Below, one piece after another: positions 1,986 to 7,761 of a DNA stretch of 7,761 nt (position 1 is the first letter of the stretch; every line of letters starts with the position of its first letter). The position numbers and the translations under genes are program-made. Under the pieces are notes generated by a model. That model searched no databases and was not told the DNA's origin. It saw only the letters and a list, made by a program, of their open reading frames with translations. This stretch comes from a virus (Duplodnaviria; Heunggongvirae; Uroviricota; Caudoviricetes): the IMG/VR virus record IMGVR_UViG_2869965101_000010; one strand, given 5' to 3'.

Positions 1986-2324
1986 CTATTTCCCTGAATT
2001 TACGACGAAACTGTTCGAGCGGACTGAAGCATTCATGCTCATAACCTCCGCGGAGGTAGATAACCCGCTGTGTTTCCGGCTCCCAACGAATGACTCTGAC
2101 GGGCACTCCGTAGTGATCTTTGAACCAGCGGTTAACTTGTCGCAAAGGACTGTCTCCTTCTGCCGGTTGAAATCACCCACAGCCCACTCTGCAAAGCTGT
2201 GGGTTACAATTTCCCTGTCACCTGGTACATTCACTGCATAGCAATATTTCACCTTCGCTTTTCCACCCGGTACAGAAAGCGCAATCAGTTGCGAGCGACG
2301 GTAGTGTGTTGTTAAACTGTTCAT
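1986..2324 (-). CDS. hypothetical protein (112 aa), translationally coupled to the upstream CII-like gene
   Basis: ORF track 1986..2324 (-). Its ATG (2322..2324) overlaps the TGA of the upstream gene (2321..2323) as ATGA on the minus strand. GGAG lies about 10 nt upstream. No family recognised. Confidence 0.5.
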
Positions 2325-2890
2325 GCGTTAGTTTCTCCACAACCAGAAGCAATCGACGCCACGACGCCCGGAGCTGCACACTCGCGGGCGTCATTACTTT
2401 CTGAAATGCAAAAAATTTTGTAGACAAGTGCTGCATGCTCCTGCAGCTTCGAAATTGAGAGATACAGCTCGTCGTTAATTGCTGTCTTCTCATGCGGTTC
2501 CACTACACCGTCTTCGATTGCTGAACGAATCTGTTTTGAATAACTGCCGATCTGTTCAATGACTTCCAGCAGACGCTGGTTAATATCGGCGTTGTCCACA
2601 TCCTCGATGTCAGGAAGAGACACAAAGACGCCATTTGCAGACTGCGCCACAGCATCAGCAATGAAGTGAGTGCCACCAGCACGCTGTAAAACCATTGCCC
2701 ATCCCAGCGGGAAAATCTGATCGCCATCTGCACGAAGGCGGTTGAATAAAGCGTTTTCTGTTACATCGAGCCAGTCAGCCGCTTCAGCGTAACCACCCGG
2801 CAACTTTGCGATAGTTTTTCTGACAGCTTTCACGTACCACTCAGGCTGTTTTTCTATTTTCCAGTGATGCTTACCCACGATTAGCCTCAT
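2321..2890 (-). CDS. phage early regulator, CII/YdaT-like (position and HTH-like segment); 189 aa if the first ATG is used
   Basis: ORF track 2321..2890 (-), immediately downstream of the cro-like gene, in the position lambda cII occupies. HTH-like stretch ..[20 protein letters not shown].. No good Shine-Dalgarno before the ATG at 2890; an in-frame GTG four codons later is preceded by GAGG, so the true start is uncertain. Confidence 0.5.
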
Positions 2891-2921
2891 CGTTCTGTGG
2901 TTAAAAATTGAAAGTGTTCTG

Positions 2922-3122
2922 CTAATCTTTCGGATAGATATCCGGTCTTAAGTCAGATTTCGTAATTGCACCTGACGTGCATTGCTCAAGTTTTTTAGCC
3001 AGCACAAAACTGGCTTTTTTATAGCCATTGAAAACCAGCCGTAAGTAGCCTTGTGTTGAGCCAACTTTTCCGGCCAACTCACCCTGCTGTTCTTTGGTTA
3101 AAGAGTCCCAATACGCTTTCAT
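2922..3122 (-). CDS. Cro-like small HTH protein (66 aa), first gene of the leftward early operon
   Basis: In-frame ATG at 3120..3122 (MKAYWDSLTKEQQGELAGKVGSTQGYLRLVFNGYKKASFVLAKKLEQ...) preceded by a strong GGAGG Shine-Dalgarno (reverse complement of 3133..3137) at 10-nt spacing. Divergent from the repressor gene with operators in between. The longer 167-aa ORF in the track is probably an upstream over-extension. Confidence 0.7.
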   Translation of the reverse strand: MKAYWDSLTKEQQGELAGKVGSTQGYLRLVFNGYKKASFVLAKKLEQCTSGAITKSDLRPDIYPKD

Positions 3123-3124
3123 AC

Positions 3125-3149
3125 AATATGTACCTCCAGCGTACATATT
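3125..3149. promoter_or_regulatory. operator site 1: perfect 9-bp inverted repeat AATATGTAC-N7-GTACATATT
   Basis: Read directly from the sequence. Overlaps the cro-like Shine-Dalgarno and start region. Core TGTAC-N7-GTACA is shared with site 2. Confidence 0.65.
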
Positions 3150-3176
3150 ACATGATTGAAATGAACCTTCACGATA

Positions 3177-3197
3177 CTTGTACCTTAGCGGTACAAG
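3177..3197. promoter_or_regulatory. operator site 2: perfect 8-bp inverted repeat CTTGTACC-N5-GGTACAAG
   Basis: Read directly from the sequence; core TGTAC-N7-GTACA. Its left half overlaps a candidate -35 (TTGTAC 3178..3183) that sits 17 bp before a TTTAAT -10 (3201..3206), which would give a near-leaderless repressor transcript starting close to the ATG at 3213 (lambda PRM-like). Confidence 0.6.
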
Positions 3198-3212
3198 GGT
3201 TTTAATTTCGTT

Positions 3213-3887
3213 ATGAAAACAATCCATGACATCCGGCGGTCTAACGCCAGAAAACTGAGAGATGGTGTTGGCGGGAATTCTTCCTTTGCCACTATGATTG
3301 ATCGCGAGCCAACCCAGACCAGCAGGTTTATGGGAGATGGTGCTACTAAAAATATCGGTGACAGCATGGCACGACACATTGAAAAATGTTTCGACCTGCC
3401 TATCGGATGGCTCGATCAAGAACACCAGACAACGAACATCACAAAAAAACCTGATGTTTCAATCACTAACAAACAAATAACGTTAGTCCCTGTCATATCA
3501 TGGGTACAGGCCGGAGCATGGAAAGAAGTTGGCTATTCTGAGGTTGATTTGAGCACAGCAGAAACTTATCCCTGCCCTGTACCCTGTGGCGAAATGACTT
3601 ATATCTTGCGGGTGATTGGTGATTCAATGATTGATGAGTACCGTCCGGGAGACATGATTTTTGTTGATCCTGAAGTCCCTGCTTGCCACGGTGACGACGT
3701 TATTGCGTTGATGCACGATACAGGCGAAACCACCTTCAAGCGATTGATAGAAGATGGAACACAGCGTTATCTCAAAGCATTACACCCAAACTGGCCTGAG
3801 CCCTACATTAAGATTAACGGTAATTGCTCTATAATTGGCACTGTGATTTTCTCGGGAAAACCAAGAAGATACAAAATAAAGGCCTAA
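3213..3887 (+). CDS. CI/C2-family prophage repressor with LexA-like S24 autopeptidase domain (224 aa), apparently intact
   Basis: ORF track 3213..3887 (+). The C-terminal domain aligns by eye with P22 C2 and lambda CI (..VISWVQAGAWKEV.., ..RVIGDSM.., ..ETTFKRLIEDG.., ..KINGNCSIIGTVI..). Predicted Ala100-Gly101 cleavage site, Ser138 and Lys176 at canonical spacing (37 and 38 residues). The N-terminal ~70 aa is HTH-like. Confidence 0.85.
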   Translation: MKTIHDIRRSNARKLRDGVGGNSSFATMIDREPTQTSRFMGDGATKNIGDSMARHIEKCFDLPIGWLDQEHQTTNITKKPDVSITNKQITLVPVISWVQAGAWKEVGYSEVDLSTAETYPCPVPCGEMTYILRVIGDSMIDEYRPGDMIFVDPEVPACHGDDVIALMHDTGETTFKRLIEDGTQRYLKALHPNWPEPYIKINGNCSIIGTVIFSGKPRRYKIKA

Positions 3888-3898
3888 TCAATATTTAT

Positions 3899-3922
3899 GA
3901 ACCTGCTTCGGCAGGTTTTTTT
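3899..3922 (+). terminator. intrinsic (rho-independent) terminator downstream of the repressor gene
   Basis: Stem GAACCTGC / GCAGGTT with TTCG tetraloop, followed by a T-run (3916..3922), beginning 12 nt after the repressor stop codon. Confidence 0.65.
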
Positions 3923-3926
3923 ATAC

Positions 3927-3959
3927 TTGACAATGTACCCCATGGACACACAATGTACC
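3927..3959 (+). promoter_or_regulatory. candidate sigma70 promoter (PL-like) flanked by two operator-like direct repeats
   Basis: Consensus -35 TTGACA (3927..3932), 16-bp spacer, -10 CACAAT (3949..3954). A 10-bp perfect direct repeat ACAATGTACC at 3930..3939 and 3950..3959 contains the same TGTAC half-site as the two operators and overlaps the -35 and -10. Confidence 0.4.
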
Positions 3960-4059
3960 AAAACGAAACAACAAACAGGCAGGATGCCCACGAAGTAGCC
4001 GCCTGGGGCATATGAAGTCCAAGATGATTCGTTAGCAACAAAACGCCCATAGGACGCTT

Positions 4060-4068
4060 CGCTCTTTA
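4060..4068 (+). promoter_or_regulatory. boxA-like element CGCTCTTTA (extended CGCTCTTTAACAA)
   Basis: Exact match to the boxA consensus of lambdoid nut sites and rrn antiterminators as recalled, about 100 nt downstream of the PL-like promoter. No convincing boxB hairpin immediately 3' and no N-like ORF follows. Confidence 0.35.
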
Positions 4069-4376
4069 ACAATTTGAATATTTTCAGCGTCAATGATCTG
4101 TTTAGCTCCCTACAAGTAAATGTAGCGTAGCACCATGATAAATCCTGCTAGTGTTTAGTTAAAAATCGCGCGAGAGCAAGAACGATGTGAGGGCAGGCAA
4201 TACTGATAGTGTTATTGCTATTAGTTTATCAAAAATATTTAGACGACCCAGATGAATATTTTTAATACATACTCCCCCTAATTTAACAGGAGTAAATGTT
4301 GATGAATAACGAGACATCTATACTCAACAATTGTATGATATGAACAATTATATAACATAATGTAGGAAAAATAAAA

Positions 4377-4511
4377 ATGGATTGGCATGACCTTATATCA
4401 AAGGTAATTATCGGACTTGTTACAGGCTCAATCGCAGCTTACTTAACTGCGCGATATGCACTCGGCCGTTATTATAAAGAAAAATGGTGGGACAAAAGAA
4501 TAGATTTGTAG
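4377..4511 (+). CDS. small single-pass membrane peptide (44 aa as found); C-terminus defined by the IS1 junction
   Basis: ATG 4377 with AGGA Shine-Dalgarno 9 nt upstream. Translation MDWHDLISKVIIGLVTGSIAAYLTARYALGRYYKEKWWDKRIDL has one hydrophobic helix and a basic/aromatic tail. The stop TAG (4509..4511) uses G4511, the first base of IS1. Not in the supplied ORF track (under 60 aa). Confidence 0.4.
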   Translation: MDWHDLISKVIIGLVTGSIAAYLTARYALGRYYKEKWWDKRIDL

Positions 4512-4565
4512 GTGATGCTGCCAACTTACTGATTTAGTGTATGATGGTGTTTTTGAGGTGCTCCA

Positions 4566-4841
4566 GTGGCTTCTGTTTCTATCAGCTGTCCCTCCTGTTC
4601 AGCTACTGACGGGGTGGTGCGTAACGGCAAAAGCACTGCCGGACATCAGCGCTATCTCTGCTCTCACTGCCGTAAAACATGGCAACTGCAGTTCACTTAC
4701 ACCGCTTCTCAACCCGGTACGCACCAGAAAATTATTGATATGGCCATGAATGGCGTTGGATGCCGGGCAACTGCACGCATTATGGGCGTTAGCCTCAACA
4801 CGATTTTACGTCACTTAAAAAACTCAGGCCGCAGTCGGTAA
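4566..4841 (+). CDS. insA: IS1 InsA (91 aa)
   Basis: ORF track; [91 protein letters not shown] matches IS1 InsA (zinc-finger/HTH). Confidence 0.9.
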
Positions 4842-4885
4842 CCTCGCGCATACAGCCGGGCAGTGACGTCATCGTCTGCGCGGAA

Positions 4886-5263
4886 ATGGACGAACAGTGG
4901 GGATACGTCGGGGCTAAATCGCGCCAGCGCTGGCTGTTTTACGCGTATGACAGGCTCCGGAAGACGGTTGTTGCGCACGTATTCGGTGAACGCACTATGG
5001 CGACGCTGGGGCGTCTTATGAGCTTGCTGTCACCCTTTGACGTGGTGATATGGATGACGGATGGCTGGCCACTGTATGAATCCCGCCTGAAGGGAAAGCT
5101 GCACGTAATCAGCAAGCGATATACGCAGCGAATTGAGCGGCATAACCTGAATCTGAGGCAGCACCTGGCACGGCTGGGACGGAAGTCGCTGTCGTTCTCA
5201 AAATCGGTGGAGCTGCATGACAAAGTCATCGGGCATTATCTGAACATAAAACACTATCAATAA
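4886..5263 (+). CDS. insB: IS1 InsB (normally expressed as the InsAB' transframe fusion)
   Basis: ORF track 4886..5263, [46 protein letters not shown]...; matches IS1 InsB. Confidence 0.9.
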
Positions 5264-5278
5264 GTTGGAGTCATTACC

Positions 5279-5611
5279 CAGACGGCGTACCACACAGGAA
5301 AAGATCGCAATTGTTCAGCAGAGCTTTGAACCGGGGATGACGGTCTCCCTCGTTGCCCGGCAACATGGTGTAGCAGCCAGTTATTTCTCTGGCGTAAGCA
5401 ATACCAGGAAGGAAGTCTTACTGCTGTGGCCGCCGGAGAACAGGTTGTTCCTGCCTCTGAACTTGCTGCCGCCATGAAGCAGATTAAAGAACTCCAGCGC
5501 CTGCTCGGCAAGAAAACGATGGAAAATGAACTCCTCAAAGAAGCCGTTGAATATGGACGGGCAAAAAAGTGGATAGCGCACGCGCCCTTATTGCCCGGGG
5601 ATGGGGAGTAA
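5279..5611 (+). pseudogene. insC: IS2 insC remnant: first ~8 codons missing and an internal frameshift
   Basis: Track ORFs 5265..5477 (...[34 protein letters not shown] then out of frame) and 5426..5611 ([60 protein letters not shown]) are the two halves of InsC in different frames. Relative to canonical InsC (..[26 protein letters not shown].., from memory), about 4 nt (one CCAG unit) are missing near 5372. Confidence 0.7.
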
Positions 5612-6474
5612 GCTTAGTCAGCCGTTGTCTCCGGGTGTCGCGTGCGCAGTTGCACGTCATTCTCAGACGAACCGATGACTGGATGGATGGCCGCCGCAGT
5701 CGTCACACTGATGATACGGATGTGCTTCTCCGTATACACCATGTTATCGGAGAGCTGCCCACGTATGGTTATCGTCGGGTATGGGCGCTGCTTCGCAGAC
5801 AGGCAGAACTTGATGGTATGCCTGCGATCAATGCCAAACGTGTTTACCGGATCATGCGCCAGAATGCGCTGTTGCTTGAGCGAAAACCTGCTGTACCGCC
5901 ATCGAAACGGGCACATACAGGCAGAGTGGCCGTGAAAGAAAGCAATCAGCGATGGTGCTCTGACGGGTTCGAGTTCTGCTGTGATAACGGAGAGAGACTG
6001 CGTGTCACGTTCGCGCTGGACTGCTGTGATCGTGAGGCACTGCACTGGGCGGTGACTACCGGCGGCTTCAACAGTGAAACAGTACAGGACGTCATGCTGG
6101 GAGCGGTGGAACGCCGCTTCGGCAACGATCTTCCGTCGTCTCCAGTGGAGTGGCTGACGGATAATGGTTCATGCTACCGGGCTAATGAAACACGCCAGTT
6201 CGCCCGGATGTTGGGACTTGAACCGAAGAACACGGCGGTGCGGAGTCCGGAGAGTAACGGAATAGCAGAGAGCTTCGTGAAAACGATAAAGCGTGACTAC
6301 ATCAGTATCATGCCCAAACCAGACGGGTTAACGGCAGCAAAGAACCTTGCAGAGGCGTTCGAGCATTATAACGAATGGCATCCGCATAGTGCGCTGGGTT
6401 ATCGCTCGCCACGGGAATATCTGCGGCAGCGGGCTTGTAATGGGTTAAGTGATAACAGATGTCTGGAAATATAG
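5569..6474 (+). CDS. insD: IS2 transposase InsD (301 aa), intact reading frame
   Basis: ORF track 5569..6474; [34 protein letters not shown]... with DDE-type core (..WCSDGFEF.., ..WLTDNGSCY.., ..[19 protein letters not shown]..). Matches IS2 InsD as recalled. Confidence 0.9.
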
Positions 6475-6550
6475 GGGCAAATCCAATAATAAATCAACAT
6501 ATCATTTCACGCTCCGATTTTCTGTCGGAGGCGAAACTGCGGCTATTCAT

Positions 6551-6856
6551 ATGCACGAAAAAGAGAATCTTGCTGGAGCGTTCTGGCTCGTTTTGCTGAT
6601 CATCGCAGGTTGGGGCGGTCTGGTCCGCTACCTGATAGATGTGAAGCAGAGTAAAGCAACGTGGAGTTGGATAAATGCTCTGGCTCAGATAGTGGTATCA
6701 GGATTCACCGGTGTTATTGGTGGCCTGATCAGCATCGAAAGTGGATTCAGTATTTACATGATTCTCGCGACAGCGGGGATTAGTGGTGCGATGGGTTCGG
6801 TTGCACTGACGTACTTCTGGGAACGACTGACAGGGGTGAAAAATGCAAAATCTTAA
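6551..6856 (+). CDS. phage holin, class I-like (three predicted TM helices), about 101 aa
   Basis: In-frame ATG at 6551 (MHEKENLAGAFWLVLLIIAGWGGLVRYLIDVKQSKATWSWINALAQIVVSGFTGVIGGLISIESGFSIYMILATAGISGAMGSVALTYFWERLTGVKNAKS). Three hydrophobic segments. Its 3' end overlaps the start of the endolysin gene by 14 nt, as in lambda S/R. The track ORF start at 6449 lies inside IS2 and is not native. Shine-Dalgarno is weak. Confidence 0.6.
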   Translation: MHEKENLAGAFWLVLLIIAGWGGLVRYLIDVKQSKATWSWINALAQIVVSGFTGVIGGLISIESGFSIYMILATAGISGAMGSVALTYFWERLTGVKNAKS

Positions 6857-7099
6857 TCCTCAGCGTAAAGCTTTCCTCGATATGGTGGCATGGTCAGAAG
6901 GAACGGATAACGGGCGACAACCGACACGTAACCACGGTTATGATATTATTGTCGGTGGTGAACTCTTCACTGATTACTCCGATCACCCTCGCAAACTTGT
7001 CACGCTAAACCCCAAACTCAAATCAACAGCTGCAGGCCGTTATCAACTTCTTTCACGCTGGTGGGATGCTTACCGCAAGCAGCTTGGGCTGAAAGACTT
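6843..7099 (+). pseudogene. lambda R-type endolysin (lytic transglycosylase), N-terminal ~86 codons; truncated by the IS911-like insertion
   Basis: MQNLNPQRKAFLDMVAWSEGTDNGRQPTRNHGYDIIVGGELFTDYSDHPRKLVTLNPKLKSTAAGRYQLLSRWWDAYRKQLGLKDF is near-identical to lambda R residues 1..~86 as recalled, including the catalytic Glu in WSEGTD. Similarity ends at ~7100 where the IS terminal repeat TGAAGTGG begins; the ORF then reads 11 codons into the IS. Confidence 0.8.

Positions 7100-7761
<662 letters not shown>

Follow-up and report, generated by a model that had tools for sequence, protein, structure and literature searches.

What is a 44-codon reading frame, with a single hydrophobic helix and a stop codon completed by an insertion sequence (IS), doing downstream of a prophage repressor gene? 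The question is raised by IMG/VR virus record IMGVR_UViG_2869965101_000010, a 7,761-nucleotide (nt) stretch of Caudoviricetes DNA that was analysed at full length and is called the window here. Its main open reading frame (ORF) lies at 4377..4511 on the plus strand and encodes the 44-amino-acid (aa) product MDWHDLISKVIIGLVTGSIAAYLTARYALGRYYKEKWWDKRIDL, as given by the ORF list and by direct reading. An initial annotation had proposed a type I toxin-like peptide, loosely reminiscent of the Ldr family and preceded by a leader mini-ORF. The comparisons presented here lead to a different answer, namely that the ORF is very probably all that remains, at the 5' end, of a phrog_17948-family prophage accessory gene (a "moron") of 198 codons, truncated by an IS1 insertion and the loss of the rest of the gene.

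A reading frame cut short by IS1

The features that define the frame and its end are listed below.

4364-4367, plus strand: Shine-Dalgarno sequence AGGA, 9 nt 5' of ATG 4377; its TAGG core is kept in homologous loci
4377..4510, plus strand: codons 1-44 and the first two bases of codon 45 of a 198-codon phrog_17948-family gene, by alignment with WP_001764244.1
4392-4460, plus strand: predicted membrane helix, about residues 6-28, from hydropathy, charge and the AlphaFold2 model
4511..5278, plus strand: IS1, 768 bp; InsA and InsB match NCBIfam transpos_IS1, and the alignment break falls at 4510/4511
5279..6474, plus strand: 5'-truncated IS2 directly abutting IS1, from the ORF list and IS2 TnpB (5569-6474; E = 1e-219, NCBIfam)

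The initial annotation had placed an AGGA at 9-nt spacing before ATG 4377 and had attributed the TAG stop to G4511, the first base of IS1, and both readings hold. The stop occupies 4509-4511; where the native locus reads TAT, the window reads TA followed by the G of IS1, and the alignment, near-perfect up to 4510, breaks exactly between 4510 and 4511. In intact loci, the remainder of the gene is followed by an HD hydrolase gene, xis-proximal genes and int. In the window, IS1 runs straight into a 5'-truncated IS2, so that this locus no longer has the other 154 codons of the gene or its early-left neighbours. The insertion of IS1 falls after codon 44, and loss of the remainder of the gene followed. 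The same IS1 junction and the same 44-aa allele are found in IMG/VR contig L044 (IMGVR_UViG_2627853765_000006), which along nearly its entire length matches the window at 99.9% identity; the arrangement has thus become fixed in at least one further sequenced genome. When GTDB species representatives were searched for the exact junction, 0 matches came back.

The intact gene in other genomes

The whole 3880-4510 stretch is carried uninterrupted, at 97.8% identity, by 16 complete Escherichia coli genomes (megablast, complete E. coli genomes). The RefSeq gene in these genomes is 597 nt long, starts at the same ATG downstream of a ymfK/cI-type repressor and encodes WP_001764244.1, a "hypothetical protein" of 198 aa whose residues 1-44 are identical to the window ORF; the earlier supposition that the native protein was longer and had lost its C-terminus is thereby borne out. 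The gene is present in only 16 of the 1359 E. coli genomes that hold the neighbouring repressor region. Among 5.8 billion proteins only ten close relatives were found, in E. coli, Citrobacter werkmanii, Raoultella planticola and assemblies or metagenomes, and a related-loci search of GTDB species representatives for this close subfamily gave 0 confirmed matches. The complete close relatives are all 195-201 aa long, share 52-84% identity and keep an unbroken reading frame.

Over the full length, the ratio of non-synonymous to synonymous substitution rates (dN/dS) is ~0.13-0.2 (Nei-Gojobori, five close relatives), and it is low in codons 1-46 as well as in the ~150 remaining codons, the part that is absent from the window. 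Judged by these ratios, the unit under selection is the full-length protein. Conservation and purifying selection in homologues mark the 44-codon frame as genuine coding sequence, but solely as part of the 198-codon gene.

Fate of the truncated product

The window feature is an IS1-generated pseudogene fragment of a phage family that is already catalogued but uncharacterised. The gene is inactivated here, and any 44-aa product would arise by accident and not as an evolved toxin. Damage to the same gene is also seen in IMG/VR contigs L022 (3357-3497) and L023 (3932-4072), whose prophages are 98.9-99.7% identical to window 2282-4510. These contigs have no IS1 and carry a CAA to TAA change at codon 47, a lesion independent of IS1 that nonetheless lies no more than 3 codons from where IS1 inserted. 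In the protein database, the decayed alleles P0006, P0008 and P0010 have frameshifts or fusions near residues 27-90, and since these break elsewhere, the closeness of the codon-47 stop to the IS1 site is probably chance. Overall, the truncations look like ordinary pseudogene decay in cryptic prophages.

This pattern bears directly on the idea that the truncated peptide of 44-46 aa is still expressed with an activity of its own, membrane-active or dominant-negative, and that the truncation was perhaps selected. In its favour, promoter-like site, Shine-Dalgarno sequence and start codon have all survived, no segment of the family is better conserved than the retained part, and the independent codon-47 stop would suit such a history. 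However, the three decayed alleles are broken at quite different places, which fits neutral decay, the surrounding prophage is full of IS elements and deletions, and expression or activity of the peptide is a conjecture from the intact signals; we regard the idea as improbable.

A type I toxin-like (Ldr-like) membrane peptide with an upstream leader mini-ORF, as initially annotated, is more doubtful again, to the point of being very improbable. Its appeal lies in the truncated product alone, which at ~44 aa has one hydrophobic helix followed by a charged, basic and aromatic tail behind a good Shine-Dalgarno sequence, and in a weak alignment of residues 3-26 to Pfam Ldr_toxin (PF13940). That alignment, at 11.8 bits (E = 0.27), falls short of the gathering score of 27. 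The homologues show that the 44 codons are the first part of a larger protein, of 198 aa in its native form, 195-201 aa in close relatives and ~150-200 aa in distant ones, and the ~150 codons missing from the window are under purifying selection. The stop codon is owed solely to IS1. An Rfam scan of 3800-4600 at a permissive threshold gave no family below E = 0.09, and a minus-strand search for an antisense promoter found weak promoter-like sites, one of them across the IS1 junction and none convincing. For the window, a false small-toxin candidate is thus removed. More generally, IS insertion can turn the N-terminal membrane anchors of larger proteins into toxin-like mini-ORFs, an artefact worth filtering in small-protein scans.

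The mini-ORF and the promoter-like site

Two features overlap between the leader described further below and the start codon.

4288..4343, plus strand: AGGAG (4288-4292) and a 13-codon mini-ORF, ATG 4302 to TGA 4341-4343, by direct reading; the peptide is not conserved
4311..4339, plus strand: candidate sigma-70-like promoter of the cassette itself, GAGACA-17-TATGAT, from a promoter scan; predicted transcription start near 4346

The AGGAG, the ATG at 4302, the 13 codons and the stop at 4341-4343 are all present as first annotated, but a functional leader is not supported, as the start codon is not conserved. At the position of ATG 4302, Raoultella, Citrobacter, L010 and L011, the four further locus types that align at this point, all have ATA; L009 shows a 2-nt insertion, and the mini-ORF frame differs between the window and Raoultella by 1 synonymous to 6 non-synonymous changes (hand count from the alignment). 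With ATA elsewhere and mostly non-synonymous changes, conservation falls on the DNA of the promoter-like blocks and not on the peptide, and the mini-ORF as a leader peptide was rejected on these grounds; the loss of its start codon counts equally against the toxin reading that included it. An in-frame ATG at 4296 would extend the mini-ORF to 15 codons, and with this start a frame of 15-22 codons exists also in Raoultella and Citrobacter; no such frame is found in L010 or L011.

The stretch from nutL to the start codon is poorly conserved except for the blocks (G/A)AGACAT and T.GTAT..TA, which correspond to the -35 and -10 elements of GAGACA-17-TATGAT, and GACAT and T.GTAT..TA are invariant across six divergent loci. 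The mini-ORF overlaps both blocks and ends, stop codon included, before the predicted transcription start near 4346.

Family, fold and topology

WP_001764244.1 matches phrog_17948 ("unknown function") at E = 6e-95 over profile positions 1-185 of 185, and the same family was matched by all 61 diverse relatives sampled (61/61). A profile search of 1.84 billion cluster representatives (50% identity clusters) returned 369 relatives at E <= 1e-3, mostly 150-200 aa long and aligned end to end. Searches of the 61 relatives against Pfam and PADLOC gave scattered chance-level matches only. Foldseek against BFVD found none at E <= 0.001, and the sole match below E = 0.01 was an uncharacterised phage protein. 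A literature keyword search on exclusion morons yielded nothing on the phrog_17948 family.

The AlphaFold2 model of the intact protein, built from a 61-sequence alignment, has a predicted local distance difference test score (pLDDT) of 89.8 and a predicted template modelling score (pTM) of 0.75. In the model, a long helix (residues 3-70) that contains the hydrophobic segment forms a four-helix bundle with helices 82-104, 112-133 and 139-176, and residues 177-198 make up a disordered tail. The best Kyte-Doolittle 19-residue window of the ORF starts at residue 6 with a score of 1.71 and marks the sole hydrophobic segment, around residues 6-24, in agreement with the single helix noted in the initial annotation. 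The best-conserved stretch of the family is the juxtamembrane motif ALxRFYxEKWWEKK, in which W38 is invariant and E35 nearly invariant; the 44-codon remnant still encodes it as RYYKEKWWDKR, and in the intact protein the aromatic and basic motif takes the form R-F/Y-Y-x-E-K-W-W-E/D-K-R. The helical bundle is fast-diverging across the family. The intact product is predicted to be a single-pass inner-membrane protein with a short acidic N-terminus, one membrane helix, the juxtamembrane motif and a four-helix bundle. Since the hydrophobic segment is flanked by charges of -2 on its N-terminal side and +4 on its C-terminal side, the positive-inside rule suggests an N-out/C-in topology with the bundle in the cytoplasm.

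Moron character and distribution

The cassette has a GC content of 30-36% against 42-50% in its flanks, and across 80 IMG/VR loci the GC of the gene (0.32-0.42) is always below that of the locus (0.42-0.55). In E. coli, a hairpin, AACCCGC-tgg-GCGGGTT, with a T-rich tail lies directly 3' of the stop codon. A terminator-like hairpin occurs within 90 nt downstream of the gene in 69% of 68 distinct family loci, as against 10% of 924 other genes in these interrelated loci. The family genes also have higher promoter-like scores and larger flanking intergenic gaps than the other genes there, and the presence of an own promoter and terminator is found at the level of consensus matches.

The gene occupies four kinds of site in temperate phages: 0-4 genes after an S24 repressor; just before xis and int; within the head module, flanked by a Mu-F-like gene on one side and scaffold and capsid genes on the other; and between lysozyme/Rz and terminase. 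SfV and PhiR29_1 have unrelated cargo in the slot behind cI. IMG/VR has 138 contigs with a family member, whereas the 50,697 phage records searched yielded only 2 phages (3 records), CobraSix and OS31, each with an integrase gene. Judged from these sequence properties, the gene has the character of a mobile phage moron: a self-contained, low-GC cassette that brings its own promoter-like site and terminator-like hairpin. In this it resembles known phage morons (HK97 gp15, lambda bor/lom and lambda rexAB), which likewise form autonomous low-GC promoter-ORF-terminator units at variable temperate-phage sites. The likeness is one of organisation and not of function, and no sequence similarity to any characterised moron product was found.

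About 17 viral contigs have the family gene inserted on the same strand in the head module, between Mu-F-like and scaffold/DUF6260 capsid genes (IMG/VR contigs L058, L064, L073, L077, L079, L082, L084-L086 and L091-L097). The head-morphogenesis module is an unusual site for a membrane-protein moron.

Repressor, pL-like promoter and phi80-type nutL

Upstream of the cassette, the window keeps the start of an early-left region.

3213..3887, plus strand: cI/YmfK-type (LexA/S24 family) prophage repressor gene, 224 aa; RefSeq homologue 'ymfK: LexA family protein' and NCBIfam LexA/UmuD-like matches
3899..3926, plus strand: intrinsic terminator of the repressor gene, found by scan; 8-bp stem GAACCTGC...GCAGGTTT, then a T run
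3927..3959, plus strand: pL-like early-left promoter TTGACA-16-CACAAT (3927-3954) with ACAATGTACC repeats, from a promoter scan
4060..4072, plus strand: boxA of nutL, CGCTCTTTAACAA (consensus boxA), by direct reading; aligns with the annotated phi80 nutL boxA
4080..4215, plus strand: phi80-type nutL structured leader, by blastn; conserved across six loci

The SfV annotation has a terminator at the position homologous to 3899..3926. The pL-like promoter scores 10/12 in the window and 11/12 in E. coli ECONIH4, and it is overlapped by two exact ACAATGTACC repeats, at 3930-3939 and 3950-3959. The cI-cro intergenic region (3122-3200) contains the palindromes AATATGTAC-n7-GTACATATT and CTTGTACC-n5-GGTACAAG, which have a TGTAC core in common. 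From these sequences, we infer that 3927-3959 is pL with its operators, the ACAATGTACC repeats being candidate operator half-sites and the cI-cro palindromes candidate operators too.

From 4080 to ~4205, the leader is 70% identical (blastn) to the phi80 region annotated "nutL boxA / nutL core" between pL and gene N. It includes a boxB-like hairpin at 4110-4125 (CTACA-AGTAAA-TGTAG) whose pairing is kept via compensatory changes, and RNAalifold finds compensatory changes in 7 of the 33 pairs of the nutL leader. The element is near-identical to that of phi80 in metagenomic loci L009 and L010 and recognisable in Raoultella and Citrobacter loci, and the distance from boxA to the family start codon is 305-323 nt in all close homologous loci. 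Five prophage lineages (the window, L008, L009, L010 and L013) have a phi80-type nutL followed by the family ORF with no N-like gene; the phi80 counterpart is L016 2478-2645. No arginine-rich N-like ORF was seen among the next ORFs beside the family gene in these lineages. By these matches, the long leader belongs to the phi80 type of nut site, with the ORF in the slot of phi80 gene N. The leader from 4060 to ~4215 is homologous to the phi80 nutL boxA and core, at equal spacing from the promoter, but the ORF that follows is unrelated to phi80 N (hhalign probability 0.4%).

Where distant family members have nut sites of the lambda or P22 type, nutL and the family gene are separated by a genuine N-like gene, whose products have N-termini of the form MTRRTQF...RRRERR and C-termini of the form ...GKSIPLI. 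The corresponding neighbourhood is that of ral and sieB in lambda; in P22 it has sieB (P22 annotation).

Possible function of the intact protein

Because of the organisation of the gene, the sites that it occupies and its near-restriction to temperate phages, we tentatively propose, with a confidence that stays short of probable, that the intact protein would act in lysogens at the inner membrane in the exclusion or abortive infection of other phages. In this lineage the cassette stands directly after the repressor gene, the pL-like promoter and the phi80-type nutL, in the phi80 N slot and beside the position of P22 sieB, and a lysogen would express the membrane-anchored protein from the cassette's own promoter-like site.

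The closest parallels are the superinfection exclusion genes of other prophages. SieB (superinfection exclusion B) of P22 and lambda is a membrane-associated abortive-infection protein. It is similar in size (192 aa against 198 aa) and is likewise a prophage accessory gene product, encoded in the early-left region near an N-type gene and nutL, with its own promoter (P22 annotation). In contrast to the family gene, P22 sieB lies on the strand opposite to pL, and the two show no sequence relationship (hhalign probability 0.2% for P22 SieB; no Pfam SieB match even at E <= 10). P22 SieA and the lactococcal injection blockers of the Sie2009 type are also small, prophage-expressed inner-membrane proteins, often encoded beside repressor or integrase genes, and Sie2009 has been described with an N-terminal membrane anchor. 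SieA differs in showing no homology to the family (hhalign probability 1%), a cytoplasm-facing four-helix bundle is not described for SieA or Sie2009, and Sie2009 is set beside the family by description only. With no homology to SieA, SieB or PADLOC models, what is claimed is therefore analogy and not membership.

Several points weigh against this proposal. The exclusion role is an argument from context, to which annotation and homology add no support: the full-length protein has no significant match in Pfam, NCBIfam or PADLOC, a sequence-profile search of the PDB gave coiled-coil noise only, and no papers were found in the literature searched for phrog_17948 and WP_001764244. The suggested topology follows from the positive-inside rule as its one line of argument. 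Consensus matches underlie both the promoter and the terminator calls, promoter scores are raised by the AT-richness of the upstream DNA, and the interrelatedness of the compared loci means that the p-values of the comparisons with other genes in these loci are overstated. Moreover, the position right behind pL and nutL fits equally well an early lytic gene that is repressed in the lysogen.

This last point leads to the main rival, in which the intact protein serves the early lytic programme of the phage as the first gene of the pL operon, in host take-over, membrane remodelling or the timing of lysis. The gene does follow the pL-like promoter and the phi80-type nutL directly, in the slot of gene N; distant members also lie in the early-left operon, after an N-like gene or near xis and int, and some members stand beside lysis genes. 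However, an early lytic gene sits poorly with conserved promoter-like blocks and a terminator-like hairpin of its own, with low GC, with members that also lie within late structural operons and with the near absence of the family from the phage records searched. The gene is also dispensable, in that the cargo of the slot varies and the gene is often decayed. We hold this role to be somewhat less likely than exclusion; it is the strongest competitor. That the protein takes over from the N antiterminator at the phi80-type nutL, in position as well as in function, is scarcely credible: although it is the first ORF after nutL in the five lineages, with no N-like ORF recognised nearby, its N-terminus is hydrophobic and membrane-anchored without an arginine-rich motif, hhalign gives it no relationship to phi80 N, and elsewhere the family coexists with a genuine N-like gene or sits in late operons.

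If the exclusion role is retained as the working proposal, a more specific version of it, held with somewhat less assurance, is that phrog_17948 could represent a new single-gene, membrane-anchored exclusion or abortive-infection system, made up of an N-out/C-in helix, the EKWW motif and a fast-evolving cytoplasmic bundle and carried as a self-transcribed moron. Should this be true, one lineage took the gene-N slot behind a phi80-type nutL, and the window contains a dead copy of a new defence gene. The intact family, as a compact, confidently folded and widespread prophage moron at classical exclusion-gene positions, is a reasonable candidate for phage-defence screens.

Rest of the rearranged prophage

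The prophage in the window has undergone heavy rearrangement. At 1-504 lies the 3' part of an integrase gene (minus strand), adjoining an IS3-family element at 516-1672, and at the other end an IS3-family transposase gene (7108-7761, minus strand) cuts into the lysozyme ORF at 6843-7133, which we take to be lambda-R-like and for which NCBIfam gave no match. Just upstream of this lysozyme-like ORF and overlapping it, in the position of a holin gene, lies a 135-aa ORF with hydrophobic stretches (6449-6856), for which NCBIfam likewise returned no match. The start of the 135-aa ORF may be non-native, as its 5' end adjoins the end of IS2.

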